A DNA stretch of 62,112 nucleotides, counting the filler, from a bacterium (GTDB taxonomy: Bacteria > JBDRGX01), in assembly GCA_043817485.1 (NCBI GenBank). It is 7 parts of 7 records of this genome, joined end to end, with 100 filler letters (N's around TTAATTAATTAA, not from the genome) between each part and the next. Parts side by side here need not be neighbours in the genome. Positions count along the whole stretch, not along the records: positions 17,141 to 31,363 come from JBDRGX010000125.1; 6 more parts are not named here. One strand, 5' to 3'. Numbering within the stretch: the first letter of the stretch is position 1; each line of letters begins with the position of its first letter. The notes under the pieces were generated by a model that was given only the letters and a program-made list of their open reading frames with translations, searched no databases and was not told the DNA's origin. Positions 12,198 to 41,979 of this stretch are shown here, piece by piece. A program made the position numbers and the translations under genes.

Positions 12198-12485
12198 TTG
12201 TTTGGGATAAGTGGTGGAGAATTACTTGTTATTTTATTTTTAGGGTTACTTCTTTTTGGTCCTCAAAAAATACCTCAAATAGCTAAAATTGTTGCTAAAA
12301 TACTTAATGATTTAAAAAAATCTACTGATCAAATTAAAAAAGACATTATGGAAAATGAACATTTAAAACAAATTCAAAATAATACTTATGATATAAAAAA
12401 TCAAATAGAAAAAAGTATTTACAAAGAAGAAAAAGAACCATTTATAAATGAAAAAGAATATTTAAAACCAAAAGGAGAAAAATTT
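12198..12485 (+). CDS. Twin-arginine translocase TatA/TatB subunit, open in frame into tpiA
   Basis: MFGISGGELLVILFLGLLLFGPQKIP; no stop before tpiA ATG. Confidence 0.8.
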
Positions 12486-13250
12486 ATGAGAAAAAAAATA
12501 ATAATTGGAAATTGGAAAATGAATAAAAATATAGAAGAATCTTTGAAATTAGTAGAAGAATTAAATCAAGAATTAAAAAATGAAAATGAAATAGATATAG
12601 TAATTTGTCCTCCTTTTACATCTCTTTTAGAAGTAAAGAAAAAATTAGAAAATAGCTTTATTGAATTAGGAGCACAAAATCTTTTTTGGGAAGAAACTGG
12701 AGCTTATACTGGAGAAATTTCTCCAGTAATGTTAAAAGACATTGGTTGTAAATATGTTATTATTGGACATTCAGAAAGAAGAATGTATTTTAATGAAACT
12801 AATGAAATGGTAAATAAAAAAATTAAAGCAGCATTAAAAAAAGATATTATTCCTATTATGTGTGTAGGTGAAAATTTAGAACAAAGAAAAAATAACGAAA
12901 CTTTTTTTGTAATAGAAAAACAACTTGAACAAGGACTTTTAGGCATAGAATTAGAAGATCTGGAAAAAATAATTATTGCTTATGAACCTATTTGGGCAAT
13001 TGGTACTGGAGTAGTAGCAACAATAGAACAAGCCCAAGAAGTTCATTCATTTATTAGAGAAAAATTATCTAAAATAGCTAATTCTTTTATTGCAGAAATA
13101 ATAAGAATTCAATATGGAGGAAGTGTAACTCCAGAAAATATACAAAATTTAATTACTCAAAAAGATATTGATGGAGCATTAGTTGGTGGAGCAAGTTTAA
13201 AATCCACATCTTTTATTTCCATTATTAAAAATACTAAAACAACTTTTTAA
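12486..13250 (+). CDS. tpiA: Triosephosphate isomerase
   Basis: GNWKMN, GAYTGE, IIGHSERR, AYEPIWAIGTG, YGGSV, LVGGASL; own RBS AAGGAG before ATG 12486. Confidence 0.96.
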   Translation: MRKKIIIGNWKMNKNIEESLKLVEELNQELKNENEIDIVICPPFTSLLEVKKKLENSFIELGAQNLFWEETGAYTGEISPVMLKDIGCKYVIIGHSERRMYFNETNEMVNKKIKAALKKDIIPIMCVGENLEQRKNNETFFVIEKQLEQGLLGIELEDLEKIIIAYEPIWAIGTGVVATIEQAQEVHSFIREKLSKIANSFIAEIIRIQYGGSVTPENIQNLITQKDIDGALVGGASLKSTSFISIIKNTKTTF

Positions 13251-17575: not shown

Positions 17576-19060
17576 ATGCCAAATAAAAATGTTATTTTAA
17601 TAACATCTGACCAATTTCGTTGGGATGTTCTTGGTTGTTGTGGGAATAAAGCTATTAAGACTCCTAATTTTGATAAATTAGCAAAACAAGGAGTTATTTT
17701 TACAAATGCTATGAGTTCAAACCCTATTTGTGTTCCTGCAAGAGCAACTATTACAACTGGAAATCATTCTCATAAATGTACTGGGTTTAAATCAAATAGT
17801 GGGAGAATTAAGGATGACCAGATAAAAATAGCAGAATATTTCAATAAATTTGGTTATGAAACATATGCTATGGGGAAACTTCATTATGTGCCTTATTTAA
17901 AAAATCGTTTAGTACATGGTTTTAAAAACTGGTAAATGACAGAATCAGGAAGAATTTTATGGCAAGAGGAATTAACAGGTAAAGATTTAGGTGGAGAAGA
18001 TTATCATTCTTACCTTAAAAAAGTGGGTTTTGAAAATATGGCTCGAGCACATGGAATTGGTAATAATGATGTAAGAGCCACTATATCTCCTGTTCCATTT
18101 GAACATTATGTTGATGTATGGATAATGAACAGGTCTTTATTTTATCTAAAAGAACATTTAAAAAGATATGCTAATAAACCATTCTTTATTTGGATATCTT
18201 TTCCAAAACCACATTCTCCTTATGACTCTCCAGAACCATACCATAAAATGTATAATCCTAAAGAAATTCCAGAACCTTTTGGTAGTATAGATAAACTTGA
18301 AAATAGAAATCCAGAACTTAAATTAAGACCTAATAAATATGGCTGGAATTTACTGTCAAAAGAAGCAATTCAATTATCTCGTGCTAGATACTATAGTTTA
18401 GTAAGTCTTCAGGATTATGTTATAGGAGAACTTCTTAAGTTTTTAAAAGAATATAATTTAAAAAATAATTCTTCTATACTTTTTACTGCTGACCATGGAG
18501 ATATGTTAGGCGATTTTGATCTTTTTTTTAAAGGATTATTACTTAATGGTTCTGTTCGTGTGCCTTTTATAATTTCTTCTCCTTTTTTGAAAAACAATGG
18601 AATTAAACTGGAGCATCTTGTAGGATTAGAAGATGTTTTACCAACCCTTTGTGAATTAGGTGATATTCCTATTCCAGAAAATATTGAAGGTAAAAGTGTA
18701 TTACCTACTATTATAGAATCTAAAAAGAATTTACGAGAAATTTATATTTCTCAATGTCAGGAAGAGCCAAATCAATTATATATGGCATTTGATGGTAAGT
18801 TTAAATATTGTTATGCAGAATGGCATGGAATTGAAGAATTGTATGATTTAAAAAATGATCCTAATGAATTACATAATTTATCCAAAGATAAAAGATATAG
18901 AAACAAACTTTCAGATTTTAAAGATGCTGTTATAGAATGGTGTAAGAAAAATAATGATTATAAAATGTTAAATGAAAAAGGAAAACTTAAAATTTCGGAT
19001 CCAAATTCAAATTTATTTATTAAAGAAACTGCAAAAGTAATGGGTTGGCGTAAATATTAA
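17576..19060 (+). pseudogene. Arylsulfatase-family hydrolase interrupted by one in-frame TAA (17933-17935)
   Basis: SDQFR, CVPARAT, GKLH in first ORF; KPHSPYD, TADHG, ELYDLKNDP in second; same frame. Confidence 0.8.
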
Positions 19061-19162
19061 TTTTAAAAAAAATATAATTAGAATCAGTAAAAAATGCTAA
19101 AGAAAAATGTGAAAAAATAATAAAGCCAAATTTATATTTATAAATTTTATTTTCAATAAATA

Positions 19163-19867
19163 TTAAAGGAGTTTTTTATTTGATATTGAAATTGATTTGT
19201 AAGAAATTATTTTATCTTTAATCGCTTCTATTAAATTAACTATATCCTTTTTATTTTTCACAGATGTTTTAAATATTTTAGCTTTTGGATTTATTTTTTC
19301 TATATTTTTCTCAACTTGCTTAATATTATATTTAAAATATGGAAGTAAATCTGTTTTGGTTATTAAAACCATATCACTATTATAAAATATGGGTGGATAT
19401 TTACTAACTTTATCATCACCTTCAGAAATAGAAGTTATGGAAATTCTTAAATTTTCCCCTAAATCAAATTCAGCTGGACAGACAAGATTTCCTATATTTT
19501 CAATAAACAATATATCTATATTGCTTTGTTTTAATGATTTAAAAGCTAATGAAATCATTCTGGAATTAAGATGACAAGCATTTCCAATATTGTCAGTATT
19601 TATCTGCACAACAGGAATTCCAATTTTTTTGATTCTACAAGCATCTTTATCAGTGGAAAGATCGCCTTCTATTACTGCTATTTTGAAAGTTTTTTTCATC
19701 AATTTTATAAGAGATTCAAGAATAGTTGTTTTTCCACAACCAGGTGATCCCATTATATTTATAACAAAAATATTTTTATCTTTGAACAATTTTCTATTTT
19801 TTTTAGCATCTTTTTCATTTACTTCTAATATATTTTTTGATAAAATAATTTTTTCCATTTGTATCAT
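19163..19867 (-). CDS. hypB: Hydrogenase nickel-insertion GTPase
   Basis: GSPGCGKTT, EGD, ACHL, ENIGNLVCPAEFDLGE, TKTDL. Confidence 0.95.
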   Translation of the reverse strand: MIQMEKIILSKNILEVNEKDAKKNRKLFKDKNIFVINIMGSPGCGKTTILESLIKLMKKTFKIAVIEGDLSTDKDACRIKKIGIPVVQINTDNIGNACHLNSRMISLAFKSLKQSNIDILFIENIGNLVCPAEFDLGENLRISITSISEGDDKVSKYPPIFYNSDMVLITKTDLLPYFKYNIKQVEKNIEKINPKAKIFKTSVKNKKDIVNLIEAIKDKIISYKSISISNKKLL

Positions 19868-19888
19868 ATTAATTCCTTTTTAATATTA

Positions 19889-19908
19889 TGCAGACCATAT
19901 AGTCTGCA
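19889..19908. other. Small hairpin between hypA and hypB
   Basis: TGCAGAC-catata-GTCTGCA. Confidence 0.35.
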
Positions 19909-19910
19909 AT

Positions 19911-20261
19911 TTAATTGTATTCTACACTATCTATAAGAAGTTCATTTCCACATAATAAATTCAAATTTGTACTTCCGCATTTTTTACACAAAAAGTGTAT
20001 GTTAAAAGTATTATTAAAAGTTATATTATTTTTACATTCATTGCATTTCATTTTAACAGGAATAATTTTTATTATTAATTTTGTATTTTCATACTTAGTT
20101 TTTTTTGATAAAATTTCAAACGCAAAATTTAAAGATTCAGGCATAATTGTTTTTAAAATTCCTATTTTTAAATTTATTTTTTTTATTTCAGATATTTTTT
20201 CTTTTTTACATTTTTTATTTAGTATATTTATTAAGCTTTTAACTATTGAAAATTCATGCAA
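19911..20261 (-). CDS. hypA: Hydrogenase nickel chaperone
   Basis: MHE N-terminus, CNEC and CKKCGS, GNEL. Confidence 0.95.
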   Translation of the reverse strand: MHEFSIVKSLINILNKKCKKEKISEIKKINLKIGILKTIMPESLNFAFEILSKKTKYENTKLIIKIIPVKMKCNECKNNITFNNTFNIHFLCKKCGSTNLNLLCGNELLIDSVEYN

Positions 20262-20419
20262 ACTATTCTCCCTCTATATTAAATTTAGCCTTTTAAGTTA
20301 AAAGTATTTGTTTTCAGAATATTAACTAATTTTTTATTTTGAATTCTCACTTTTATGAAAACAAGGGATAGGACAATTACTTTTTTAAAAAAATTACACA
20401 AATTCTATTTTACAGAAGT

Positions 20420-21601
20420 TTAATTAATTCCTAAATCAGTTGGTGCTCTACCAATTGAATATAATAAATCAAGAACATATTTAATTCTTGTTTTTACATT
20501 TTCATTTGCACATACTCGTTCTGGATAAATTTCATAGAGTTCCTTGTATTTTTTGGGAGTTACGTTTATCATAAGAGAATTTGCTCCTGCCATTAATCCA
20601 TTTTTTGCCCCATTATTTTTGTCTATAGTTTCCATAGCAGTGGTTACTACTATTTTACTTTCTGGATATAATATTCTTGTTCTTGCAATTGTATTTAAGC
20701 ACTGTTCTATACTTGGAGTTTTTTCAATAGCAAGTGGAGTATCTTTATGCGGAATAAATGGACCAAAAGAAAACATTTCTGTTTGAAGTTCTGCAGTAAG
20801 ATGTATATCATTTATTATATTATCTTCTGTCTGATCAGGTAACCCAAATAAAAAACCAGTAAGTACAAGAAATCCCATTTTATTTAATTTTTTTATAATG
20901 TTTATTCTATTTTCTAATTTAAAACCAGGTTTTAATTTTTCATATAATTTTTTTTTGCTTGTTTCAAAACGCATAAGCACACCTCTTGCACCTTCATTAT
21001 ATATTTTTTCATATGTAGATATGTCTCTTTCTCCTATGCTTACAACAAGAAGCGTATTGCTTTTTACTCTTATTTTTTTTATTATATTAACAAGTATTTC
21101 ATCTGTATACCAATCATCTTCTCCTGATTGTAATACAAGAGCTTTAAATCCTAATGCATTAACAGCGTAATTTGCAGCAAAAATAATTTCATCCACTGTC
21201 ATTCTATATCTTTTTATATTTTTATTACTTTTTCTTATTCCACAATATAAACAATCATTTTTACAATAATTAGAAAATTCTATTATACCGTGAACACAAC
21301 ATGAATTTCCTGAATGCTGTTGTCTTACTGAATTTGCAATTTGATACAATGTTTTTGGTTCTTGTGCAAGCCTTAAATCAGTTTCTTTTAACTTCAAAAA
21401 AATTTCTTTCCATGTTTTAAGTAATTCCAATGCCTTTTTTTCAGGCACTTTGCTTATAACAAAACCTCCTTGAGCATAAACATATTCACCAGAATTTACT
21501 TCAAAAAATTCATTTCTGGCTTTTCTTAATTCTCCAAAGTAATCAACAATAACAAATTTGCCATTTACTTCTTTTATTTTTCCTGGGATTGAATAGCACA
21601 T
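20420..21601 (-). CDS. Fusion: N-terminal HypC-like domain + HydE-like radical SAM
   Basis: MCYSIPGKI..VDY.G..GEYVYAQGGFVI (HypC pattern); IEFSNYCKNDCLYCGIR, LQSGED, RFETS, GPFIPHKDTPL, AGANSLM.NVTP..Y..LYEIY (HydE pattern). Confidence 0.85.
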   Translation of the reverse strand: MCYSIPGKIKEVNGKFVIVDYFGELRKARNEFFEVNSGEYVYAQGGFVISKVPEKKALELLKTWKEIFLKLKETDLRLAQEPKTLYQIANSVRQQHSGNSCCVHGIIEFSNYCKNDCLYCGIRKSNKNIKRYRMTVDEIIFAANYAVNALGFKALVLQSGEDDWYTDEILVNIIKKIRVKSNTLLVVSIGERDISTYEKIYNEGARGVLMRFETSKKKLYEKLKPGFKLENRINIIKKLNKMGFLVLTGFLFGLPDQTEDNIINDIHLTAELQTEMFSFGPFIPHKDTPLAIEKTPSIEQCLNTIARTRILYPESKIVVTTAMETIDKNNGAKNGLMAGANSLMINVTPKKYKELYEIYPERVCANENVKTRIKYVLDLLYSIGRAPTDLGIN

Positions 21602-21607
21602 GTTTTT

Positions 21608-22996
21608 TTAGATAGATATATCTTTAATGAATATATCTATGCTTCCTTTTTTAATTTTTTTTAAGTATTTTTTTGTTTTATTTGCTATAATAGGATTATC
21701 TATTTTTTCAAGATAATAATTTATAATTTCATAACCCTTTTGGTACAATTTTGGAGATGCAAAATTTTCAAGATATTCAGCAAAAGTTAAAAGTCCATTA
21801 GGTCTGCAAAATTTATGAATTTCACCAGATTTGGAAAGTTTCATAAAATCCTTACCTATTCTACCTGTGCGATAACATGCAGTACAAAAGCTTGGAAGAA
21901 GTTTGTCGTTCAATACATCAAAAATAATTTCTTCTACTTTTCTTTTATCATTAATAACAAATTGAACTCTATCATCTTTTTTTCCATAACCATCTGTAAC
22001 TGTTACTGAACCTGCTGATGTTTGAGAAATACCTATTTTAAAAGCTATTTTTCTTATGTTAGGAGTTTCTCTTGTACTTATAATAAGTCCAGTATAAGGT
22101 ATGGCTAATCTTAAAATAGCAATAAGTTTTAAAAAATCTTGATCCGAAACAAGATATTTAGGTTTATATTTAACTGATGGAGCAGAACAAAATCTAGGAA
22201 CAGATATAGTATGAGGTCCTATTTCACTGATTTTGTCCATATATTGAGCATGTGAAACAAGTCCAAGTATTTCAAATCTCCAGTCATAAAGTCCAAATAA
22301 AACTCCTAACCCTCTGTCATCAAGTCCTGCTTCTAAAGCTCTATTATGAGCTGTAATTTGCCTATTATAATCAGATTTTGGTCCTTTATGTAGTTTTTCG
22401 TATGTTTGGCGATGATAAGTTTCTTGAAATAATTGATAAGTTCCTATATTTGTCTTTTTCAATTTTTTGTAATTATCTACTGTAGTAGCGGCGATATTTA
22501 CATTTATCCTTCTTATATTTCCTTTTTTTGTTTTTACTGAGTATATTGTATCAATAACTTGAACAACATAATCAATATCATTTACTTTTGGATCTTCTCC
22601 AAATTCAAGAAGTACTCTTTTATGCCCCATATTTATAAGTATTTCCACTTGTTTTTTTACTTGCTCAATGGTGATTTTTTTTCTTTTCAATTCCATATTA
22701 CTTATGTGGAAATTACAATATTCACAATCATTTACACAAAAATCAGAAACATAAAGCGGAGCAAAAAGCACTAATCTTTCACCATAAATTTCATTTTTTA
22801 TTTTTGCTGCTACTTCAAAAAGTGCTTGTTCTAATTCCGGTATTTTTAAATTTACCAGATATCCAACATCTTTAAGATTTAATCCTTTTTTGTCTTTTGC
22901 TTTATTTAAAATATCATTTATAATTTCTTTTGAAGGATTTTCAGTTTTTTTTAATAACTCATTTATTTTTAATTCATCAATTATATTTTGATTCAT
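21608..22996 (-). CDS. hydG: [FeFe]-hydrogenase maturase HydG
   Basis: FAPLY, CVNDCEYC, FQETY, GPHTISVPR, STRE, PSFCTACYR-x-FCRPN (Cx2Cx22C). Confidence 0.93.
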   Translation of the reverse strand: MNQNIIDELKINELLKKTENPSKEIINDILNKAKDKKGLNLKDVGYLVNLKIPELEQALFEVAAKIKNEIYGERLVLFAPLYVSDFCVNDCEYCNFHISNMELKRKKITIEQVKKQVEILINMGHKRVLLEFGEDPKVNDIDYVVQVIDTIYSVKTKKGNIRRINVNIAATTVDNYKKLKKTNIGTYQLFQETYHRQTYEKLHKGPKSDYNRQITAHNRALEAGLDDRGLGVLFGLYDWRFEILGLVSHAQYMDKISEIGPHTISVPRFCSAPSVKYKPKYLVSDQDFLKLIAILRLAIPYTGLIISTRETPNIRKIAFKIGISQTSAGSVTVTDGYGKKDDRVQFVINDKRKVEEIIFDVLNDKLLPSFCTACYRTGRIGKDFMKLSKSGEIHKFCRPNGLLTFAEYLENFASPKLYQKGYEIINYYLEKIDNPIIANKTKKYLKKIKKGSIDIFIKDISI

Positions 22997-23006
22997 ATAT
23001 TTTTAT

Positions 23007-23471
23007 TTATTTTTTTTGAAAATTAGAAATAAGTAATTCTACTTTTTTTACCATATTAGGAATTTTTTGTTTTATTAAGTTTGTTAAATTCAAACCAAAT
23101 TCTGTATTAGACGGTTCAATCCCAACAACCATAATATTATACTCATGATTTATTTCAAAAGCAATTTTTAACGTTTCATGAAGAGCCAATCCGTGTGTTG
23201 TAACTCCAGAATCAGCATTTATAAAATTTACATTTTTGGGATTAAATACCTTAATAGTTCCTGGTTTTTTATTCATTTTAACAGCATCTATAATTATAAT
23301 AAATTCATAATCAAAATATTTGATAACATCAAGTCCTGATATATTTTTACATATAAATCTTACATTAGCAAATGTATTTTTTTTTTCAAGATATTCTACT
23401 ACATGTATTCCAATAGCATCATCTTTTCTAAAAATATTTCCTACTCCAATAACAGATATGCCTTTTTTCAT
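23007..23471 (-). CDS. Hydrogenase maturation endopeptidase (HyaD/HycI family)
   Basis: GVGNIFRKDDAIG, IIDAV, THG, GIEP. Confidence 0.92.
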   Translation of the reverse strand: MKKGISVIGVGNIFRKDDAIGIHVVEYLEKKNTFANVRFICKNISGLDVIKYFDYEFIIIIDAVKMNKKPGTIKVFNPKNVNFINADSGVTTHGLALHETLKIAFEINHEYNIMVVGIEPSNTEFGLNLTNLIKQKIPNMVKKVELLISNFQKK

Positions 23472-23474
23472 TTA

Positions 23475-24809
23475 TTAAACAAATTCAACATTAAGATAAT
23501 GACATGAGCAAGAAATACACGGATCATAAGCTCTAATAAGCATTTCTGCTTGAATTGTTATTTCTTCTTTTGACTTATTTAAAATTTCTGGAATCATTTT
23601 TTTCAAATCCATATCGATATTTGCTAAATTTTGGTTTGTTGGAATTACACAATTTGCTTTTTCTATAAGTCCTTTGGTGTCTATTGTATAATCGTGGAAT
23701 AAAATACCCCTTGGTACTTCTACTGCACCAACACCTTTTCCAGGTTTTATTTTAAATGTTTTTTGTTCTTCTATTGTTGGCCAACTTGATACTGCTTCAT
23801 TTGCATTTATTCCATTTATAAGAAAATCTTCTATTATGGAAAGTGTGTCTCTTAAGCAATAAGCAGTTTCTACAACTTGAGCAATAGTATTCATAAATGG
23901 ATTATAACATGGAGATTGTAATCCTAAAGAATCAGCTAAATCAAGTTCTTTTTTTGAAAGTTTTTTATGATTAATATTAAACCTTGCTAAAGATCCTACC
24001 ATATATGAATTTTTTTTATTTTTTGAATGTTTTGAAGTGGAATGTTCTACATAAAATTCATGAACAAAATTAAGATAATCTTTTGGATGGATTACTCCTT
24101 CTTCAGATGAAGCAATATTTCCATCAAGAAAAGCATATTCATCAGAATGTGTTAATGCAATATATTCTGTTTTTCTTTCAAAAGATGGAAGTTTTAAAGT
24201 TTTAACAATTCCAATAACAGTATCTAAATCTTTTTCAAGATTTAGAAGCAATTTTTTCATTTTTTCAAGTTCTTTTTTGGTTGGTATTTTTGTAAAACCT
24301 CTAACACATAAAGTAATAGGATGTGTATGTCTGCCTAATAATAAATCACATAAATCACTACATATTTTTTTCATTTTCAAAGCAAGGATTACAATATCAG
24401 GATGAGTTTTAATAAGCGGAAATACACTTTCTACTCCAAGACAATCAGGTGCAACAAGAAAAAGTACATGAAGTAAATGGCTGTCTAATGTTTCAAGATG
24501 CAATGCAACCTTTCTTAATTTTTTAGTTTGTTCAGTAGGACTAAATCCTATGGCATCTTCTGTTGCTTTTATGGATGCAAGACTATGTCCTGTAGAGCAA
24601 ATACCACATATTCTCGATGTAATATGTTGTACTTCAAACATTGACCTGCCTTTTACCATCACTTCAAAAAATCTCGGAGCTTCTATTACATTTAGATGAC
24701 ATTCTTCAAGTTTGCCGTTTTTTATATTAATTTTAATGTTTCCATGTCCTTCAACTCTTGTAAGATATTCTACATTTATATTTAAATCTTTTTTAAGTTC
24801 CTGACTCAT
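23475..24809 (-). CDS. Group 3b [NiFe]-hydrogenase large (alpha) subunit
   Basis: TRVEGHG, L1 RICGICS, EVPRG, L2 DPCISCSCH plus cleavable tail YLNVEFV; ATG 24809 with GGAGG. Confidence 0.95.
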   Translation of the reverse strand: MSQELKKDLNINVEYLTRVEGHGNIKINIKNGKLEECHLNVIEAPRFFEVMVKGRSMFEVQHITSRICGICSTGHSLASIKATEDAIGFSPTEQTKKLRKVALHLETLDSHLLHVLFLVAPDCLGVESVFPLIKTHPDIVILALKMKKICSDLCDLLLGRHTHPITLCVRGFTKIPTKKELEKMKKLLLNLEKDLDTVIGIVKTLKLPSFERKTEYIALTHSDEYAFLDGNIASSEEGVIHPKDYLNFVHEFYVEHSTSKHSKNKKNSYMVGSLARFNINHKKLSKKELDLADSLGLQSPCYNPFMNTIAQVVETAYCLRDTLSIIEDFLINGINANEAVSSWPTIEEQKTFKIKPGKGVGAVEVPRGILFHDYTIDTKGLIEKANCVIPTNQNLANIDMDLKKMIPEILNKSKEEITIQAEMLIRAYDPCISCSCHYLNVEFV

Positions 24810-25566
24810 TCTTTTCCTCCATCCACATTTTAACTCCTTCATAAATATTGAATTTATCTTTAAGCATTTCTAATGTGAAACCATATTTTTTAAGTATATC
24901 TATTTGTCCTTGTTTATTATAATCTTCAAGTAGTCCTCTGCAATTATAGCATGTATTTCCATTAGACGGACACCATGCATCACATCCGGCTCTAGTTACA
25001 GGACCCATACAAACTTGACCTTTTTCAAATAAACATACATTTTCTTTTAATTTGCATTCAACACAAACAGCATGAGTTGGAATTTTATATGGTACGCCTG
25101 TTAAAAGTCCTTTTAATACTAATGCAAATTCATTGTTATTTGTAGGACATCCATGTACATATGCATCTACTTTAACAACTTGGTCTACTGGTTTAATAGA
25201 GCCTGTTTCTATTTTATCTTTTCTTCCTGGATAAACAATTTCTAATGCATTTTCTATATTATGTTTTTTAATTATTCCATTAATTCCACCTGTACAAGCA
25301 CATGCACCATAAGCTACAAGTATTTTTGCTTTATTTCTTATATCTTTTATTCTTTCTTCATCATGTAGTCTTATTATGGCTCCTTCTATTATTGCAACAT
25401 CATAATTTTCTGACCTTTCATGCATAACTTCTCTAAAATTTACTATGTCAATATGTTCAAGAATATCAAGAAGAGCAGTGTTTAAATAAGTTAATTGAAG
25501 TTGACAACCTTCACAATCTGAAAAATCAAAAAATGCAACTCTAACTTTTTTTTTTATTTCAATCAT
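24793..25566 (-). CDS. Group 3b hydrogenase small (delta) subunit
   Basis: CEGC, GACA, GCP, VCVEC..C..CMGPVTRAGC..CP..CYNCRG. Confidence 0.93.
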   Translation of the reverse strand: MIEIKKKVRVAFFDFSDCEGCQLQLTYLNTALLDILEHIDIVNFREVMHERSENYDVAIIEGAIIRLHDEERIKDIRNKAKILVAYGACACTGGINGIIKKHNIENALEIVYPGRKDKIETGSIKPVDQVVKVDAYVHGCPTNNNEFALVLKGLLTGVPYKIPTHAVCVECKLKENVCLFEKGQVCMGPVTRAGCDAWCPSNGNTCYNCRGLLEDYNKQGQIDILKKYGFTLEMLKDKFNIYEGVKMWMEEKNESGT

Positions 25567-26414
25567 ATTGCTCCTTCTATTTCTTTAATTTTATCGTAAG
25601 AAAATACCGGTCCATCTTGACAACAGTAATAATTATTTATTTGACAATGTCCACATTTTCCAAGTCCACATTTCATATGTCTTTCAAGAGAAAGAAAAAT
25701 TTGATTGTCTGGAATTTTTTTTTCCATAAGCTTAATAATTACAAATTTATACATAATAGGTGGACCACATATTATACAATAAGTTTGTTTTATATCTATA
25801 TCAACTTTGGGAATTAGTTCTGTAATTAATCCTATATTTCCTTTCCAATCAGGAGCAGTTTTATCAACTGTGCATTGAAAATGAATATCTGTGAGTTTTT
25901 CCCATTTTTCTATTTCATCAGTATATAAAAGCTGTTTTGGTTCTTTACAACCAAGGAGTATAACAACTTTACCAAAATCTTTTCTTTTATCTAACACAAA
26001 ATTAATTAATGACCTTAACGGTGCTATTCCAAGTCCTCCAGCTATAAATAATAAATCTTTTCCCTTTAATTCATCAACAGGAAATCCATGTCCAAATGGA
26101 CCTCTTATTCCTATTTTATCTCCTTCTTTTAAGGTATGTAAAACTGATGTAAAATTACCTGCTTTTCTTACACAAATCTCAAAAAATCCCTTTTGAGTAG
26201 GAGAGGAAGAAATAGAGATAGGAGCTTCTCCAACTCCAAATATGGATATTTCAGCAAATTGTCCAGGGGAATGTTCAAGGTTTTTGTTCTCTTCTAATTC
26301 AATTTTAAACCATTTTTCCATAGCAGTCATTTGTTTTATATCAGTAATGATTCCTATTTTTGGAATATAAAGAGATTCCATATTTTTGTATTTTTCTGTT
26401 ATTATATTATTCAT
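25563..26414 (-). CDS. Group 3b hydrogenase gamma subunit (FAD/NAD(P), 2Fe-2S; AsrB-like)
   Basis: PGQF, RGPFG, AGGLGIAPLRS, CGPPIM, ERHMKCGLGKCGHC..CQDGPVF. Confidence 0.93.
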   Translation of the reverse strand: MNNIITEKYKNMESLYIPKIGIITDIKQMTAMEKWFKIELEENKNLEHSPGQFAEISIFGVGEAPISISSSPTQKGFFEICVRKAGNFTSVLHTLKEGDKIGIRGPFGHGFPVDELKGKDLLFIAGGLGIAPLRSLINFVLDKRKDFGKVVILLGCKEPKQLLYTDEIEKWEKLTDIHFQCTVDKTAPDWKGNIGLITELIPKVDIDIKQTYCIICGPPIMYKFVIIKLMEKKIPDNQIFLSLERHMKCGLGKCGHCQINNYYCCQDGPVFSYDKIKEIEGAI

Positions 26415-27448
26415 ATATTTTCCTTTGCTAAAGAGTTAATAGTTTCATATAAATTAATTTTTGCCATACAAGCTCTTGTACAACGTCCACAACCTACACA
26501 AAAATTTCTATTATATTTTTCAACACAATATAAAAATTTTCTGAAAAATCTATGTTGTTGTCGACTTTTTCTTTCTTCTCTGAAATTTTCACCACCAGCA
26601 ACTTCAGCAAAATTTTTCAATTGACATGAATCCCATGTTCTGTATCTTTTTCCTTCTTTTAAATTTAATTCAATGTCATCTTTTACATCAAAACAATAAC
26701 AAGTTGGACATACATTTGTACAATTACCACAGGATACACATTTTTTTCCGATTTCATCCCATAATGTATTTTTTTTTGTTTTACTTAATATTTTTCCTAT
26801 TTCATCATGATTTGGGATAAGATTTTTTTTCCATTTTTCATCTTTTTCCTGTCTATTTTTACTTAATTTATATTCAATGTCTGAAATATCTTTAAAAACA
26901 AATTTATAATTGTTAACAAGATTTTCGCCTTCAGGCGAATTAATCTGAATAGCATATTCTTCCCCAATATCAGTAAGCATAAGGTCATATCCACCCTTTG
27001 GATTATTGGTTCCCATAGTAATGCAGGTTGCATGTTCATCACATGGTTCAAGACATTCAATGCCTATTATTATAATATTTTTTTTTCTTTTAAAAAAAGT
27101 TTTATCAATAGGATTTACTCCACATGCATTATCAAGACATAATATTCCTGCAATATCACATGTATGAGCACCGAAAATAATTAAAGGAGTTTGATCTATA
27201 TTCGATGTTTCTGCTTTTATATTTTCAATTTTAAAAGAAAATAAAGTTTCTTCTTGTGGAAGATAATATTTTTTCAAAGAAAGAATTGGAGGTTTGTGAA
27301 GAAGAATAAGTTCTTCAGGCGAATCAAGAAAATTTATTACATATTGATTTTCTTTTCTTGTTGGACCTGCTATTCTGTACTTGTTTTTTAGAGATTCAAA
27401 CAAATTTTTTATTTTTTGTTTTTCTATAGTATAGTATTTCATAAACAC
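26411..27448 (-). CDS. Group 3b hydrogenase beta subunit (4Fe-4S dicluster; AsrA-like)
   Basis: CVSCGNCTNVCPTCYC, WDSC, CVGCGRCTRAC. Confidence 0.93.
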   Translation of the reverse strand: MFMKYYTIEKQKIKNLFESLKNKYRIAGPTRKENQYVINFLDSPEELILLHKPPILSLKKYYLPQEETLFSFKIENIKAETSNIDQTPLIIFGAHTCDIAGILCLDNACGVNPIDKTFFKRKKNIIIIGIECLEPCDEHATCITMGTNNPKGGYDLMLTDIGEEYAIQINSPEGENLVNNYKFVFKDISDIEYKLSKNRQEKDEKWKKNLIPNHDEIGKILSKTKKNTLWDEIGKKCVSCGNCTNVCPTCYCFDVKDDIELNLKEGKRYRTWDSCQLKNFAEVAGGENFREERKSRQQHRFFRKFLYCVEKYNRNFCVGCGRCTRACMAKINLYETINSLAKENI

Positions 27449-27469
27449 CTTTCACCTTTCACCTTAAAT

Positions 27470-28354
27470 TTATTTTGGGAATGTTTTGTTTTCCTTTTTT
27501 TCTGTGTCTTTTACATAAGTGGTCCAATAAAATAATCCTACAAAAATTGCTCCACCAATAATATTTCCAATTGTTACTGGAATTAAGTTATTTACAAAAA
27601 ACCCTTTCCATGTTAATTTTACTAAATCTAAACCATCAGTTACTAAAGCAGAACCTTTTAAGAAAATTCCTAATGGAATAAAATACATATTAGCAATAGA
27701 GTGCTCAAAACCTAATGCTGCAAATGTCATTATGGGAAAAAATATAGCAAATATTTTTCCTATAACTTGTCTTGAAGCAAGAGCCATCCATATAGCTAAA
27801 CACACAAGCCAATTACATAAAATACCACGAGTTAAACATTCTGTAAAAGTTAATCCAACCTTTGTATTAGCTATTTTAACTGCACTAAGACCTACTGCCA
27901 TATCTCCCATTTTCCAAAGATTTGTTTTATAATAAAGAGCAGCTAAAAGCATAGCACCAATAAAATTAGCTATATAAACAATCATCCATTTATAAAGCAT
28001 TTTTTCAAATCTTAATTTTTTATCTGCTACACTCATTAACATTAAGGTATTGCCAGTAAAAAGTTCTGCACCGCAAATTACTACAAGCATAAGTCCTACA
28101 GAGAATAAAGCACCAGTTATAAATCTTGCTAAACCTAATCCTAAATATTTTGCAACATCATGACCACCTAAAGTCGAAATGCAACCTCCGAAACCAATGT
28201 AAGCACCAGCTAAAATTCCTAAAATAATTATTTTAGCATCAATCATCATTGCTTTTTGTATGCCTACAGTTCTTGTAAGTGTTTCTGCAACAATAGCACC
28301 AGTACGACAATCTACATTTACTACTGGTATTATTGCTGGTTGTTGTTTTTCCAT
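27470..28354 (-). CDS. Formate/nitrite transporter (FNT) family channel
   Basis: LAGAYI, GAELFTGN, LCNWLVC, GFEHSIANM, GNIIGG. Confidence 0.93.
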   Translation of the reverse strand: MEKQQPAIIPVVNVDCRTGAIVAETLTRTVGIQKAMMIDAKIIILGILAGAYIGFGGCISTLGGHDVAKYLGLGLARFITGALFSVGLMLVVICGAELFTGNTLMLMSVADKKLRFEKMLYKWMIVYIANFIGAMLLAALYYKTNLWKMGDMAVGLSAVKIANTKVGLTFTECLTRGILCNWLVCLAIWMALASRQVIGKIFAIFFPIMTFAALGFEHSIANMYFIPLGIFLKGSALVTDGLDLVKLTWKGFFVNNLIPVTIGNIIGGAIFVGLFYWTTYVKDTEKKENKTFPK

Positions 28355-28376
28355 GCTTTTTACTCTTTTCTTTTTT

Positions 28377-28409
28377 TTGTGATAAATATCACTGTGATAT
28401 TTATCACTG
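28377..28409. promoter_or_regulatory. Two overlapping Rex-type operators upstream of the FNT-hydrogenase operon
   Basis: TTGTGATAAATATCACTG and CTGTGATATTTATCACTG; together a 29-bp palindrome GTGATAAATATCAC-t-GTGATATTTATCAC; resembles TTGTGA-N6-TCACAA. Confidence 0.8.
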
Positions 28410-28426
28410 GTTAAAATAAAAAAAAT

Positions 28427-29053
28427 TTATTTTACTACTGAAAAATAACGAAGTGCTTTAATTTCAATTGTTAAATCTACATTTCGTAATGTAATTTCTT
28501 TAGGAACATTTAAAACTACAGGTGCAAAATTTAAAATACTAAAAACACCAGATTCAATTAATTTATCTGCAATCATTTGAGCATTATCATATGAAACAGC
28601 GATAATTCCAATATGAATATTATTTTTTTTAACACTTTCTTTAATATTACTTATATCTTCTACTATAATATTTCCACATAATTTTCCAATTTTATTTTTA
28701 TCTTGATCAAATGCAGCTACGAATTTCAAACCTTCTTGTTCAAATCCTTTATAATTTAAAAGAGCAGATCCTAAATTACCTACACCTACAATAGCAAGAT
28801 TACACATTTTTTTTGCATTAATAATATCTAACAAGTATTTTTTTAAATTTAATACATTGTATCCTTTTCCTGGTTGTCCAAATTTCCCAAAATTAGCTAA
28901 ATCTTTTCTAATTTGAAAAGCATTAATATTTGTTATTTCAGCAAGTTCTTCAGATGAAATATTTATTTTTTCTTGTTCAATTTGTTGAACAATTCTTAAA
29001 TATTGTAAAATTCTTGGAATAACTATTTCAGAAATTTTTTTCTCTTCTAACAT
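28427..29053 (-). CDS. rex: Redox-sensing transcriptional repressor Rex
   Basis: ISSEELA, QIRKDLANFG..G.PGKGY, VGVGNLG, ILNFAP. Confidence 0.95.
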   Translation of the reverse strand: MLEEKKISEIVIPRILQYLRIVQQIEQEKINISSEELAEITNINAFQIRKDLANFGKFGQPGKGYNVLNLKKYLLDIINAKKMCNLAIVGVGNLGSALLNYKGFEQEGLKFVAAFDQDKNKIGKLCGNIIVEDISNIKESVKKNNIHIGIIAVSYDNAQMIADKLIESGVFSILNFAPVVLNVPKEITLRNVDLTIEIKALRYFSVVK

Positions 29054-29076
29054 TTATTTATTCCTTTTTTAAAAAT

Positions 29077-29113
29077 TTGTGATAAATATTACAATTCAAT
29101 AAAAATATGTCAA
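29077..29113 (-). promoter_or_regulatory. rex promoter with Rex box over the -10 element
   Basis: Minus-strand TTGACA (29113-29108), 16 nt, TAATAT; TTGTGATAAATATTACAA at 29077-29094. Confidence 0.75.
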
Positions 29114-29137
29114 GATTTTTTTAAAAATTGTGAAAAA

Positions 29138-30004
29138 TTAAAATATTATTTCTTCTTGTCTTAAAGCATAACAAGAAAAATTTACTGCTACTGGTAAGCC
29201 AGCAATATGAGTAGGAAAAACTTCTATATTAACTCCTAAACAAGTTGTATCTCCACCTATTCCCTGAGGACCTATATTGAGTTCATTAATTTCATTATAA
29301 AGTTCTTCTTCTAATTTTTTTATATGCTTTAAAGGATTAGAAGAATTTAAAGGGCGAAGTAAAGCTTTTTTAGATAAAAAAGCTGCATATTCCATAGTCC
29401 CACCAATGCCAATTCCTAATATAATGGGTGGACAAGGAGAAGCTCCAGCATCTTTAACTGTTTGAATTACAAAATCCTTTATTCCTTGTGTTTCTTGTGA
29501 AGGATTTAATAAAGCAATTTTACTCATATTTTCTGCTCCAAATCCTTTTGGTAAAAGAGTAATTTTAATTTTATCACCCAACACTTGCTCAATATGAATA
29601 ACTGCAGGAGTATTATCGCCAGTATTAATTCTAATTAAAGGATCATTTACAACAGATTTTCTTAAATATCCTTTTATATAGCCCTTTTTTACTCCTTGAT
29701 TTATTGCTTGAGAAATATTTCCTTTTATATACACATTTTCACCTATTTCAACAAATACTGTCATCATTCCAGTATCTTGACATACTGGCATTTTTTCTTT
29801 TTTGGCTAAAGAAATATTTTCTAAAATCATTTCTAAAACTTCTTTTGCTTTTATATTTTTTTCTTTTTTATAAGATTTTTTTAAAGATAAAACTACATCT
29901 TTTCTGATTGAAATATTTGCTTCAATACACTTATTAGATATAGAATCTATTAAATCAATAGCTTTAATTTTTCGAAATGACTTCATATTATTCCTTTTTA
30001 TCAT
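29138..30004 (-). CDS. Fe-S fumarate hydratase / tartrate dehydratase alpha subunit
   Basis: PVCQDTG, NTGDNTPA, KGFGAENMS, PCPP, HIAGLPVAVN.SC. Confidence 0.9.
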   Translation of the reverse strand: MIKRNNMKSFRKIKAIDLIDSISNKCIEANISIRKDVVLSLKKSYKKEKNIKAKEVLEMILENISLAKKEKMPVCQDTGMMTVFVEIGENVYIKGNISQAINQGVKKGYIKGYLRKSVVNDPLIRINTGDNTPAVIHIEQVLGDKIKITLLPKGFGAENMSKIALLNPSQETQGIKDFVIQTVKDAGASPCPPIILGIGIGGTMEYAAFLSKKALLRPLNSSNPLKHIKKLEEELYNEINELNIGPQGIGGDTTCLGVNIEVFPTHIAGLPVAVNFSCYALRQEEIIF

Positions 30005-37951: not shown

Positions 37952-39079
37952 TTATCCTTCTATTATTTTTTGAAGTTTTTGAATAATTACATTCCAATTA
38001 TATTTTTTTATTATTTCATTCCATTCTTGATTCCAAATACTATTTTTTTCTTTTTTAATTGCATTTACCCAATTTTCTATTTTTCTTTCAGTTAAAACAA
38101 GATGTGGAAAATTCAAATAAACTAATTCTTGCAAAGGAGTTGCGATTACTTTTTTTTGTGAAGCTCCATATTCAAGTACTTTTAAAGGAAAAGCATAATC
38201 AGTAAAAGGTATTTTTATGAATGGTAAAACTCCAAGATCAATTACTTTAAAAAATAAATGAATTTTTTCTGGAGATATATTTTGAGTGAAAATTATATTT
38301 TCATTTGCTAATTTTTCGAATTTTTCAATTTCAGATCCACCTCCTATTATAAACAATCATTTATTTGGTATATCTAATTTATTAAAAACTTCTATTAAAA
38401 AATCCAATCCAGACCATGAACCATGATATCCAATAAAACCAATAACAAATTTTCCTTTTAATTTATATTTTTCTCTAATTCCTTCTAATTCTGTGTTTGA
38501 GAAGTTACTGAATTGAAACAATGAAACTCCATTAGGAATAAGTATTGCATCTTTATTATATTTTTCTTTTATTATTTTAGATAATGAATTAGAAATAGTA
38601 ATTACTTCATTTGATTTTTCAATTTCATTTTTTATAAAATTTTCTATATAATTTTTTGTTTTTGAAATACAAATAGAAGTATGTTCATCCACTAAATCAT
38701 AAATATATTTTACATTTTTTAATTTTGGCGAAGGATAATAATAAGTATTAGCATTTATTACAACATCTATTTTATGTTTTTTAATAAATTTTGTTATTTG
38801 CCAACAATTATATTTTGCCATAAATTTTTGTGGTATATATAAACTTTAAATTTTTACATAAAAAAGATTATCTTTTAAAATAATTAAAGGTTTAAATAAA
38901 AAAAAATGTTTTATTTCATTTAAAATTTTTTTAAATAAAGTTTTAGGGGTAAAAGATAAATAAGGATACCATGTTAAATAATAAACATTGTAATTTTTTT
39001 GTAAAATTTTAGCTATTTCTTGTGATCTTATTTTTATATTTAATAAAGGTGTATGTGGAATTATTAAAATGTTTTTCAA
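37952..39079 (-). pseudogene. GT-B glycosyltransferase with two in-frame stops
   Basis: Three ORFs share one frame (1128 nt) broken by TAA 38846-38848 and TGA 38357-38359; YDLVD, IPNGV, FPLKVLEY motifs. Confidence 0.75.
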
Positions 39080-39100
39080 AAAAACCTCTTTTTTTTGTTA

Positions 39101-39233
39101 TATTAAATTGTATTTAAAAGTAAAACAAATATATAATAAAAATTATAAATTAAAAATTAAAAATTCAGATTTTTTCATTCTGTATTCTGACTTTTAAATT
39201 TATTTGGTATATATCTTTGATTGTAATTTGGTA
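39101..39233. mobile_element. Degenerate MITE, family A
   Basis: Right TIR TTTGATTGTAATTTGGTA (39216-39233); weak left TIR TATTAAATTGTATTTAAA; heptamer-like interior. Confidence 0.4.
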
Positions 39234-39240
39234 TTATAAT

Positions 39241-39340
39241 NNNNNNNNNNNNNNNNNNNNNNNNNNNNNNNNNNNNNNNNNNNNTTAATTAATTAANNNN
39301 NNNNNNNNNNNNNNNNNNNNNNNNNNNNNNNNNNNNNNNN
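39241..39340. other. Artificial contig linker
   Basis: N-TTAATTAATTAA-N. Confidence 0.98.
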
Positions 39341-39373
39341 TTATAATAAAAATATATAACTAAAATTTCTTAT

Positions 39374-39520
39374 TTATTTTCTATGTCTTGATTTTATATT
39401 TGATATAATTACAATTGTTCTATGTAAATCATTTTGCCAATTTATAGGTATATTTTCTCTTTCATCATCCATTATTTTTTCGATATCATTTTGTACTTTA
39501 TTCATTTCTTTAATATTCAT
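39374..39520 (-). CDS. Hypothetical protein, 48 aa (not in ORF track)
   Basis: MNIKEMNKVQ...SRHRK*; AAGGAGTGTG RBS. Confidence 0.55.
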   Translation of the reverse strand: MNIKEMNKVQNDIEKIMDDERENIPINWQNDLHRTIVIISNIKSRHRK

Positions 39521-39544
39521 TTTTTAATCACACTCCTTTTTATT

Positions 39545-39724
39545 TTACCTCATTTTTAATGATCTATTATTATAATATTCTTTTAATAAAAGATAACGTA
39601 AACTATTCAATTGCTCTTTTATTTTATAAGCAATATCACTATTTTTTACATTTATTAGAGTATATTCAATGGTTTTATCTATTTTCGTTCTAATACTTTC
39701 TTGCATTCTTTTTGATAGTTGCAT
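39545..39724 (-). CDS. Hypothetical protein, 59 aa (not in ORF track)
   Basis: MQLSKRMQES...SLKMR*; AAGGA leader. Confidence 0.55.
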   Translation of the reverse strand: MQLSKRMQESIRTKIDKTIEYTLINVKNSDIAYKIKEQLNSLRYLLLKEYYNNRSLKMR

Positions 39725-39752
39725 ATTTATATGTTCACATTCCTTTTTTATT

Positions 39753-39992
39753 TTAATTATAATAATATATTCTTTTTAGTTTATTTTCTATTACTTTTTT
39801 TACTTCATCTATATTGTGCGCCCACACTTCATCTTTTTTAATAATATCGTTCCCAAGATATACCCAAAAAACATATCGGAAATATTTCCCCGATATTTCG
39901 GTTATTTTTGACATTCTTTTAATATTAATAGTAAAAGATAAAGTTGTGGATAGTTTCGTAAAACTTTTTTTAATATATTTTGATGTTGTCAT
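39753..39992 (-). CDS. Hypothetical protein
   Basis: ATG 39992 after GGAGGGT; MTTSKYIKK. Confidence 0.6.
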   Translation of the reverse strand: MTTSKYIKKSFTKLSTTLSFTINIKRMSKITEISGKYFRYVFWVYLGNDIIKKDEVWAHNIDEVKKVIENKLKRIYYYN

Positions 39993-39996
39993 TTTT

Positions 39997-40245
39997 TTAC
40001 CCTCCTTGTTTTCTTTTCCCTTTTTTTGGTTCATTAAGTGGTTTTCCAGTTCTTTTTTGTTCTTTAGCTAATTCTTTCCATCGTTTTTTAAATTGAAGCA
40101 TTTGTACCTCTTGTAATGTTTTATGTTGGGCATACTGCGCATGATCGAAGAATATTTTTATTTTTTTTCCATCAGATTTTCGGTATCTTTTATGAACCTT
40201 ATTACATTGGCTACACCAATACCATTCTTTTCCTTTTATATCCAT
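39997..40245 (-). CDS. Hypothetical basic protein with CxxC-x3-H motif
   Basis: WYWCSQCNKVH; GAGGT RBS. Confidence 0.65.
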   Translation of the reverse strand: MDIKGKEWYWCSQCNKVHKRYRKSDGKKIKIFFDHAQYAQHKTLQEVQMLQFKKRWKELAKEQKRTGKPLNEPKKGKRKQGG

Positions 40246-40267
40246 TTTTATTTACCTCTTTTTTTAT

Positions 40268-40501
40268 TTATATTCTAACCAATCGCATTTTTCCTGTTTT
40301 TTTATTTTTTCTATACATATATGTTCGGTGTGATTTCCATCCAGAACCAAATGGTTCTTTTGCTATTTCTAAATGTGCTTTTACATAAGGAAACCTAGAT
40401 AAATAATTTTCAATCCATCTTTTTCCTTCTTCTTTATTTTGTGGAAATAAAATATATTTTCCATCGAGCATATGATCAAATTTAATTCTATATGTTGTCA
40501 T
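40268..40501 (-). CDS. Hypothetical protein, paralog of 41234-41479
   Basis: MTTYRIKFDH..GKY..PY..K.TG. Confidence 0.7.
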   Translation of the reverse strand: MTTYRIKFDHMLDGKYILFPQNKEEGKRWIENYLSRFPYVKAHLEIAKEPFGSGWKSHRTYMYRKNKKTGKMRLVRI

Positions 40502-40503
40502 AT

Positions 40504-41965: not shown

Positions 41966-41979
41966 TTTTTAACCACTCC

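Follow-up and report, generated by a model that had tools for sequence, protein, structure and literature searches.

A HypC–HydE fusion encoded beside HydG in a [NiFe] hydrogenase operon, a candidate maturase for the iron centre

[NiFe] and [FeFe] hydrogenases are the textbook case of convergent active sites with unrelated maturation machineries. Among the maturases of the H-cluster, fusion is known from Chlamydomonas HydEF, in which HydE is joined to the receiver of its product, the scaffold HydF, and His51 of Escherichia coli HypC has a role in iron and CO2 binding. In the classical [NiFe] pathway, Fe(CN)2CO is held by HypC Cys2 together with HypD Cys41, and its transport to the large subunit is the work of HypC alone (PMC11565642). 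The known product of HydG is [Fe(Cys)(CO)2(CN)] (PMC11826987), and in Thermotoga maritima HydE two Fe(I)(CO)2(CN)(SH) units on M291 and M224 dimerise in the cavity between (quantum mechanics/molecular mechanics, PMC11826987 section 3.4). Here we analysed a 62,112-nucleotide stretch of joined contig parts, filler included, from the bacterial assembly GCA_043817485.1 (hereafter the window), in which the minus-strand gene at 20420-21601 encodes a HypC domain fused to a HydE-like radical S-adenosylmethionine (SAM) barrel, immediately after a HydG gene and within a [NiFe] hydrogenase operon.

The fusion and HydG together probably mark an undescribed way of building the [NiFe] iron-carbonyl-cyanide centre. 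Our reading, held with moderate confidence and drawn from sequence comparisons, is that HydG and HypC::HydE replace HypC, HypD, HypE and HypF for a group-3b-like [NiFe] hydrogenase. Like HypX, the aerobic CO route of [NiFe] enzymes (PMC6802093), the pair would be an alternative enzymatic source of a diatomic ligand. Whereas HypX supplements HypCDEF and yields CO only, the HydG/fusion system appears to replace HypDEF and would give both CO and cyanide (CN) from tyrosine.

The fusion protein and its family

Judged by profile and structure matches, the protein is a HypC domain joined to a HydE-like radical SAM barrel with its catalytic core intact, much as an earlier note, made from the DNA alone, had read it. 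The parts of the gene are as follows.

20420..21601 (minus strand): HypC::HydE fusion gene, 393 codons plus stop (Pfam, NCBIfam, structure matches, AlphaFold2 model)
21368..21601 (minus strand): HypC domain with its C-terminal helix, residues 1-78 (Pfam HupF_HypC on residues 1-64)
21596-21598 (minus strand): codon of Cys2 in the HypC domain
21470-21472 (minus strand): codon of Gln44 in the HypC domain
20423..21367 (minus strand): HydE-like radical SAM barrel, residues 79-393 (TIGR03956 on residues 79-381)
21242-21265 (minus strand): CX3CX2C motif (C113-C120) of the HydE-like barrel
21296-21298 (minus strand): codon of the family-specific Cys102
21290-21292 (minus strand): codon of the family-specific His104

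This is the sole long frame at the site; its ATG lies 6 nt past the HydG stop codon, and the protein begins MCYSIPGK at the first ATG of the frame. The Pfam scan that the earlier note had proposed found both HupF_HypC and Radical_SAM in the fusion. HupF_HypC (PF01455) covers residues 1-64 on profile positions 1-65 of 65 with 47.2 bits (cut-off 28.5), which bears out the proposed HypC pattern of the N-terminus, and among solved structures the first 80 residues match Thermococcus kodakarensis HypC (2z1c, E 1.4e-13). The stricter NCBIfam HypC model, TIGR00074, gives 34.1 bits, under its cut-off of 48. Structure-sequence alignments also agree with the note on two residues: Cys2 is kept, and Gln44 ('aQggf') stands in the column of the conserved His of 2z1c, 3vyr, 3d3r and E. 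coli HypC 2ot2 ('vHtgf' or 'vHvgf'), which we take to be H51 in E. coli numbering.

In the remainder of the protein, Radical_SAM lies at residues 107-267 and BATS at 282-360, and the quoted motifs CKNDCLYC, GPFIPHKDTPL and GANSLMINVTP are all present in the translation. The barrel goes with HydE and not with BioB or PylB, as had been suggested, according to family profiles, structure matches, Foldseek and the tree described below. The NCBIfam HydE equivalog (TIGR03956) spans residues 79-381 at 278 bits (cut-off 254.6), and the sister families fall under their cut-offs: PylB at 146.3 (348.2), BioB at 94.5 (225) and HmdB at 84.3 (320.9). Residues 83-387 align with T. maritima HydE (3cix) at E 2.7e-72; the values are 5.8e-26 for PylB and 6.9e-06 for BioB. 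An AlphaFold2 model built on 65 fused homologues reached a mean predicted local distance difference test (pLDDT) of 94.0 and a predicted template modelling score (pTM) of 0.91; it places the HypC strands at residues 7-52 and bridges the HypC and HydE barrels by a single continuous helix (54-78). Foldseek ranked 3cix first for this model (E 1.2e-33, template modelling (TM) score 0.84 on the target), with PylB (E 6.9e-23), HydG, ThiH and BioB behind it. C113, C117 and C120 of the CX3CX2C motif are invariant in the 65 fused sequences.

The architecture is far from confined to this assembly. A search of 5.8 billion proteins (NCBI, JGI, ENA, Logan) listed the best 120 relatives, and PF01455 and PF04055 occur together in 120 of 120 among these listed matches; the window's own protein aside, they share 58-72% identity with it and are 375-415 residues long. 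The named relatives are labelled Elusimicrobiota, Omnitrophota, Planctomycetota, Firestonebacteria, Desantisbacteria or Poribacteria, and database names include '[FeFe] hydrogenase H-cluster radical SAM maturase HydE', 'biotin synthase' and 'radical SAM protein'. Species-representative genomes were also scanned, and 80 loci were kept. The fused form is found at 40 of them, 38 called by an MC..[ILV]P start ahead of the HydE domain and two (L028 and L045, with masked or cut N-termini) by hand. These fused loci come from Margulisiibacteriota, many groups of the candidate phyla radiation (CPR) and bins labelled Woesearchaeota and Methanosarcinales. Ten of ten further fused proteins (nine CPR-type, one archaeal) exceed the HupF_HypC cut-off, at 46-63 bits. 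Two architectures were seen: a short form (~392 residues, as in the window), which is without the first ~24 positions of the HydE profile, and a longer form (~420-450 residues), which keeps them. On these sequence matches, the family is real, conserved, widespread and mis-named in public records, and the route it would serve may extend across Omnitrophota-, Elusimicrobiota- and Planctomycetota-labelled bins, Margulisiibacteriota, CPR bacteria and Woesearchaeota- or Methanosarcinales-labelled archaea.

An assembly chimera or a decaying gene was considered and ruled out, and we give it practically no chance. Nothing beyond the unusual architecture speaks for it, and that architecture is shared by all 120 listed relatives, which come from independent sources at the identities given above, and by the 40 fused loci, drawn from several phyla of bacteria and archaea. 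No variation was seen in Cys2 or the catalytic motifs, and the structure model is of high confidence.

Hydrogenase operons and genome content

The fusion sits in a run of minus-strand genes, from 29053 down to 19163, that are separated by small gaps or overlap. Listed in order of transcription, the genes around the fusion are these.

28427..29053 (minus strand): Rex-like redox-sensing regulator, first of the cluster, 72 nt upstream of the next gene (Pfam Put_DNA-bind_N and CoA_binding)
27470..28354 (minus strand): formate/nitrite transporter family protein (Pfam Form_Nir_trans, 267.7 bits)
26411..27448 (minus strand): hydrogenase beta-type subunit with a 4Fe-4S dicluster (Pfam Fer4_22, 107.8 bits)
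25563..26414 (minus strand): hydrogenase gamma-type subunit, FAD/NAD-binding and 2Fe-2S (Pfam FAD_binding_6, NAD_binding_1 and DHODB_Fe-S_bind)
24793..25566 (minus strand): [NiFe] hydrogenase small (delta-type) subunit (Pfam Oxidored_q6, 89.4 bits)
23475..24842 (minus strand): [NiFe] hydrogenase large (alpha) subunit, group-3b-like (Pfam NiFeSe_Hases, 107.9 bits)
23007..23471 (minus strand): hydrogenase maturation endopeptidase (Pfam HycI, 67.9 bits; TIGR00072, 106.1 bits, cut-off 47.45)
21608..22996 (minus strand): HydG, a tyrosine lyase forming CO and CN at a dangler iron (TIGR03955, 517.9 bits, cut-off 312.15)
19911..20261 (minus strand): HypA nickel metallochaperone (Pfam HypA, 107 bits; TIGR00100, 88.0 bits, just under the cut-off of 88.1)
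19163..19867 (minus strand): HypB nickel GTPase (TIGR00073, 249.7 bits, cut-off 121.2)

The large subunit appears to be group-3b-like, an assignment that rests on the NCBIfam models closest to it: sulfhydrogenase HydA at 258.7 bits and ShyA at 255.7 bits, each well short of its cut-off. The four-subunit alpha-beta-gamma-delta gene set is complete. The RICGxCxxxH, EAPRG, PT and DPCxxCxxH motifs of the large subunit do not vary among 17 aligned 3b-like sequences, with all four Cys kept, and a 7-residue extension follows its final His. The Arg of EAPRG and the Thr of PT presumably hydrogen-bond both cyanides; if the pocket is as canonical as it looks, the site is expected to be Fe(CO)(CN)2. In HydG, C87/C91/C94 and C371/C374/C397 (CX2CX22C) occur in all 29 sequences compared. 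A complex prediction for the large subunit with the HypC domain (residues 1-80), run without controls, gave scores of 0.01 and 0.00 (mark 0.32).

The Rex-like regulator at the head of the hydrogenase cluster suggests control that responds to NADH/NAD. The best minus-strand promoter-like site (29113-29086) is just upstream of its gene, albeit in a promoter and terminator scan of 18900-29400 in which site counts were not above those of shuffles. Rfam returned 0 matches in the window. No HypD, HypE, HypF, HydF or [FeFe] hydrogenase was found among the 50 of the window's 64 open reading frames of >=100 residues that were scanned against Pfam, and the HypD, HypE and HypF proteins of G015, a fusion-bearing genome described below, matched nothing in a six-frame translation of the window.

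Association with [NiFe] hydrogenase genes extends to other loci. Large or small subunit genes accompany the fusion at 21 of 40 fused loci and none of 40 unfused HydE loci; HydG is present at 17 of the 40 fused loci, always on the same strand and within 120 nt, and at 11 of the 40 unfused ones. Many fused loci end at contig edges, and these neighbourhood counts are therefore lower bounds. HypA and HypB were found near the fusion at 0 of 40 fused loci by single-sequence phmmer (E 1e-5), a search that is probably too insensitive for such short, divergent proteins.

The 31 genomes behind the fused loci were searched with curated family models, and counts are of matches over cut-off. Control genomes behaved as expected in every family search, and leaving out one unpublished genome (G010) lowers each denominator by one with the results unchanged.

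[NiFe] large subunit: 31 of 31 fusion genomes
HydG: 22 of 31
HypD: 1 of 31 (G015)
HypE: 1 of 31 (G015)
HypF: 1 of 31 (G015)
HydF: 0 of 31
[FeFe] HydA: 2 of 31

As a control of sensitivity on comparable bins, HydF exceeded its cut-off in 28 of 31 genomes with unfused HydE. Together with the neighbourhoods, these counts favour the earlier proposal that the fusion ties two maturation systems together and serves the [NiFe] large subunit; the hand-over of an iron unit to that subunit is still something we infer.

Large-subunit types vary among the fused loci, those of the CPR and archaeal loci being 3b-like. At L004 and L006 the fusion lies beside a large-subunit type of 481-482 residues that does not end in DPCxxCxxH, and the Margulisiibacteriota-type loci L005 and L011 have a weakly matching type of ~400 residues. 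Nine CPR large subunits (L019, L020, L024, L027, L028, L029, L033, L039, L045) end exactly at the His of DPCxxCxxH and so have no C-terminal extension, for which reason a maturation endopeptidase would not be needed.

The HydE-like cavity and the HypC histidine column

We assessed the position of the barrel within the HydE family from a tree of 83 sequences (41 fused, 40 unfused and 2 BioB) built in IQ-TREE quick mode under LG+G4, with Shimodaira-Hasegawa-like approximate likelihood ratio test (SH-aLRT) support only; the unfused HydE are those that the query patterns retrieved. PylB, sought as an outgroup, was found over cut-off in none of 5 genomes searched, and two genomes supplied BioB in its place. 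One branch (SH-aLRT 100) sets the 40 unfused HydE apart: all of them lie to one side of it, and every fused form, the window's domain among them, lies beyond it. Among the fused forms, those of CPR type group in a clade (99) with unfused HydE as its sister (97), and the window-type and archaeal fusions stay outside this grouping. With the root on BioB, whose long branch (2.26) makes it uncertain, fused forms branch below canonical HydE, and the [FeFe] maturase could thus descend from a [NiFe]-linked ancestor. The unfused HydE of L025, L031 and L038 form the basal branch of the canonical clade and have the canonical Arg at T. maritima R54; they come from two Methanosarcinales-labelled bins, in both of which HydE adjoins HydG, and one Omnitrophota-labelled bin.

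Canonical HydE and the fused family also differ in the cavity. Columns were mapped to T. maritima HydE numbers through the 3cix alignment for the 41 fused and 40 unfused sequences, and the fused protein's residues are given first.

C102 (T. maritima H52): Cys in 41 of 41 fused; Tyr in 32, His in 6 and Phe in 2 of 40 unfused
H104 (R54): His in 41 of 41 fused; Arg in 40 of 40 unfused
G207 (R155): Gly in 38 and Ala in 3 of 41 fused; Arg in 40 of 40 unfused
V186 (T134): Phe in 33, Tyr in 4, Ile in 2 and Val in 1 of 41 fused (Val in the window); Thr in 37 of 40 unfused
S278 (G226): Ser in 38 of 41 fused; Gly in 40 of 40 unfused
V319 (A267): Val in 39 of 41 fused; Ala in 36 of 40 unfused
I345 (P292): Phe, Ile or Leu in 39 of 41 fused; Pro in 38 of 40 unfused
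A154 (T103): Leu in 19, Ala in 17, Ile in 3 and Thr in 1 of 41 fused; Thr in 40 of 40 unfused

The fused HydE domains, 41 of 41, thus show Cys-x-His at a place taken by [Y/H/F]-x-Arg in 40 of 40 canonical HydE. The pair lies on one strand, and from strand geometry we infer that it faces the lumen. In T. maritima HydE, R54, T134, R155 and T269 are in contact with the CN ligands of both Fe(I) units (PMC11826987 section 3.4). The window has H104, V186, G207 and T321 at these positions, and three of the four are replaced across the fused family. Fused and unfused forms alike keep the SAM-cluster Cys, R211 (R159), L209 (L157), M276 (M224), M344 (M291) and T321 (T269). The barrel would, on this pattern, still process the HydG product, with the dimer no longer made.

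Set against T. maritima HydE as a whole (TIGR03956; 3cix, 7o1o), the fusion keeps the fold, CX3CX2C, R159, M224, M291, L157 and T268/T269, and has HydG likewise as a neighbouring gene. It differs in the replacement of R54 by His, H52 by Cys, R155 by Gly, T134 and P292 by hydrophobic residues and G226 by Ser, in the absence of two of the three auxiliary-cluster Cys, in the shortened N-terminal part of the window's form and in its place outside the canonical clade; it also occurs without HydF, and without HydA in 29 of 31 genomes. As in Chlamydomonas HydEF, HydE would be fused to the receiver of its product, the partner here being HypC and not the scaffold HydF. Given the remodelled cavity and the position in the tree, the barrel is not a plain HydE, and the earlier note's iron unit processed by HydE, if taken in the sense of the [FeFe] pathway, finds no support as worded.

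The same observations bear on whether the fusion could be an ordinary H-cluster maturase for an [FeFe] hydrogenase encoded elsewhere, its HypC domain and operon position being incidental. TIGR03956 and TIGR03955 both exceed their cut-offs, relatives carry that name at NCBI and HydA does occur in two of the 31 fusion genomes. Yet HydF is missing from every fusion genome while being found in nearly all of those with unfused HydE, HydA is absent in 29 of 31, the fused forms lie outside the canonical HydE clade and have lost the equivalents of R54 and R155 that all 40 unfused sequences retain, and the fusion is embedded in [NiFe] operons; we regard this explanation as very improbable. The HydA-type genes (279.6-294.3 bits) belong to two CPR genomes, G027 and G031, which have the fusion and neither HydF nor HydG over cut-off.

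The HypC domain resembles HypC, HybG and HupF of the HypCDEF pathway in its N-terminal Met-Cys, its small beta-barrel followed by a C-terminal helix, and its place in a [NiFe] operon with HypA, HypB and the endopeptidase. It differs from them by the covalent radical SAM barrel, the Gln at the conserved His, the score under the NCBIfam HypC cut-off and a HypD partner that was not found in 30 of 31 fusion genomes. Among 65 window-type fusions (56 hand-picked from the 120 listed relatives and 9 locus translations), M1, C2, I5, P6, Q44 and G46 are invariant. At the His column, the CPR-type fused domains (20 distinct ones) carry Ala, Thr, Val or Ile and in no case His or Gln. His is present at that column in the classical HypC of G015 and in 7 of 7 free CPR HypC recovered ('LMHDGRAL') from 9 genomes with such a HypC. 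In these alignments, the column is thus fixed as Gln in one lineage, has lost His in the other and keeps it in free HypC.

The earlier note had held that loss of the His would fit loss of the HypD partnership. HypD is over cut-off in none of the CPR genomes behind the 7 free HypC that keep the His, and a simple rule of 'no HypD, no His' therefore fails; the CPR-type fused domains with neither His nor Gln at the column also speak against it. G001-G014, the 14 non-CPR genomes, have no HypC-family match other than the fusion. Nine CPR genomes (G017, G018, G021, G022, G024, G026, G027, G029, G031; loci L092, L094-L099) encode the HypC family twice over, once as the domain, without His, that is fused to HydE and once as a free HypC of 76-90 residues that adjoins the large subunit or the fusion. 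The pairing suggests a two-step hand-over.

A proposed maturation route and its implications

Taken further, the fusion could define a third, HypCDEF-independent route to the [NiFe] iron centre, in which CO and CN both come from tyrosine, the barrel has been converted to a maker of mononuclear iron carbonyl-cyanide, and the Cys-x-His site holds the unit and passes it to HypC Cys2; on this fuller claim we are evenly divided. HydG would act as it does in the [FeFe] pathway, cleaving tyrosine and assembling an iron carbonyl-cyanide cysteinate at its dangler iron. The HydE-like barrel, in which the two Fe(I)-holding Met are kept, would bind this complex and strip the cysteine by SAM radical chemistry. 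The polar residues that cradle the second iron unit are replaced and an invariant Cys-x-His stands in the cavity, so that the product would stay mononuclear and could go to Cys2 of the attached HypC domain, which would dock on the apo large subunit and deliver the iron unit. HypA and HypB would then insert nickel, and the endopeptidase would trim the C-terminus.

Several observations weigh against HydG and the fusion acting as the replacement for HypCDEF. The HydG product has two CO and one CN, the [NiFe] site one CO and two CN, a mismatch that the proposed route leaves standing. HydG itself shows no mark of the fusion context: 81 columns, both cluster motifs included, are invariant across 18 sequences from beside fusions and 11 from beside unfused HydE, no residue tells the two contexts apart among these, and the HydG tree does not separate them, since fusion-side HydG is not one clade and requires 3 changes. 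HypDEF, HydF or HydA may sit elsewhere in the window's organism, for which searches covered the window only, and all 31 fusion genomes are metagenome bins of unknown completeness. HydG is missing over cut-off in 9 of these 31; two (G005, G011) show C-terminal HydG fragments and seven, all CPR, show none. CPR operons L019, L033 and L045 have the fusion among hydrogenase genes and no HydG (beta-gamma-fusion-small-large in L019 and L033; fusion-small-large in L045, which is cut at the contig start), and the fusion may therefore work without HydG; their sister operon L024 keeps HydG after the fusion. Lastly, among 401 genomes sampled evenly from the CPR phylum of G018 (G063-G454), the large subunit was found in 79, HypD in 19 (17 with the large subunit), HydG in 8 (7 with the large subunit) and both HypD and HydG in none, which leaves 55 of the 79 large-subunit genomes with neither over cut-off. 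Fifteen of these 55 were picked for long contigs: 12 have only a free HypC near the large subunit, and the fusion is in 0 of 15. Lack of HypDEF is thus common in CPR regardless of the fusion and is not diagnostic there, so that the argument from absence counts mainly for the 14 non-CPR genomes.

Two other explanations draw on these points. HydG and the fusion might be accessories to a classical HypCDEF set elsewhere in the genome, supplying CO, for example, while HypE and HypF give cyanide. The window-bound search of the organism leaves room for this, the large-subunit pocket looks canonical, and G015 carries the fusion along with HypD, HypE and HypF and a classical HypC beside them. That genome also encodes a second, classical large subunit (589.7 bits), though, which could be the client of its Hyp set, and across the fusion genomes each of HypD, HypE and HypF occurs once, against a large subunit in every one; we consider an accessory role quite improbable.

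Alternatively, the HydE-like domain could act independently of HydG, as a radical SAM enzyme that HypC directs towards the large subunit or a donor of iron, e.g. for sulfur or iron chemistry, with HydG a frequent but dispensable neighbour. The seven CPR fusion genomes without trace of HydG and the three HydG-less operons fit this, as do the departures from canonical HydE at the CN-contact positions and the nine CPR genomes with an extra, His-bearing HypC next to the large subunit or fusion. Against it, HydG is over cut-off in most fusion genomes and abuts the fusion in 17 of 40 loci (<=120 nt; 6 nt in the window), the substrate-side R159, M224 and M291 are kept with the SAM cluster, and, with HydF absent and HydA rare in fusion genomes, HydG has no other evident client. 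We judge independence from HydG unlikely and retain the pairing of HydG with the fusion as our reading, with confidence limited by the window-bound search of the organism, the HydG-less CPR cases and a case built on sequence.

The remainder of the window gives some indication of the host. It is AT-rich, with a guanine-cytosine (GC) fraction of about 0.25, and its LptA/LptC, LptB-like and sigma-54 genes point to a diderm. For the isoleucyl-tRNA synthetase (6910-9810, minus strand), the best database relative is 82% identical and the second 53%; the host lineage is very poorly sampled. In a sulfatase gene (17576-19060, plus strand), a TAA at 17933-17935 with an ATG directly behind it divides the sequence into two neighbouring frames, and this is either a pseudogene or a two-piece gene. 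In one plus-strand frame, at 12198-13250, a TatA/B/E-like segment (residues 4-49) precedes triosephosphate isomerase (residues 100-345); this may be a true fusion or a start called too far upstream. The minus-strand stretch at 38357-45605, of short frames with few family matches (among them LPD29 and DUF6011), is possibly the remnant of a mobile element; the lowest GC of the window, 0.186, falls in its first part, at 38001-40000.

We found no description of a HypC-HydE fusion or of HydG/HydE-dependent [NiFe] maturation in the full-text literature, subscription journals not covered, and the exact term 'HypC-HydE' had 0 matches there. A survey of archaeal [FeFe] hydrogenases and HydEFG (PMC11216029) contains neither HypC nor HypD in its main text, and its supplements may list some of the archaeal HydE and HydG.

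The annotation of the family is corrected here: the names given in public records, [FeFe] H-cluster maturase or biotin synthase, mislead metabolic reconstructions. If the proposed route is true, a tyrosine-derived iron synthon of the [FeFe] type feeding a [NiFe] enzyme would break the accepted separation between the two maturation machineries, and it would give these lineages a defined anaerobic source of the CO ligand. The compact maturation set of HydG, fusion, HypA, HypB and protease could help in heterologous hydrogenase production. The route would also explain how [NiFe] hydrogenases are matured in many uncultured bacteria and archaea without HypDEF.

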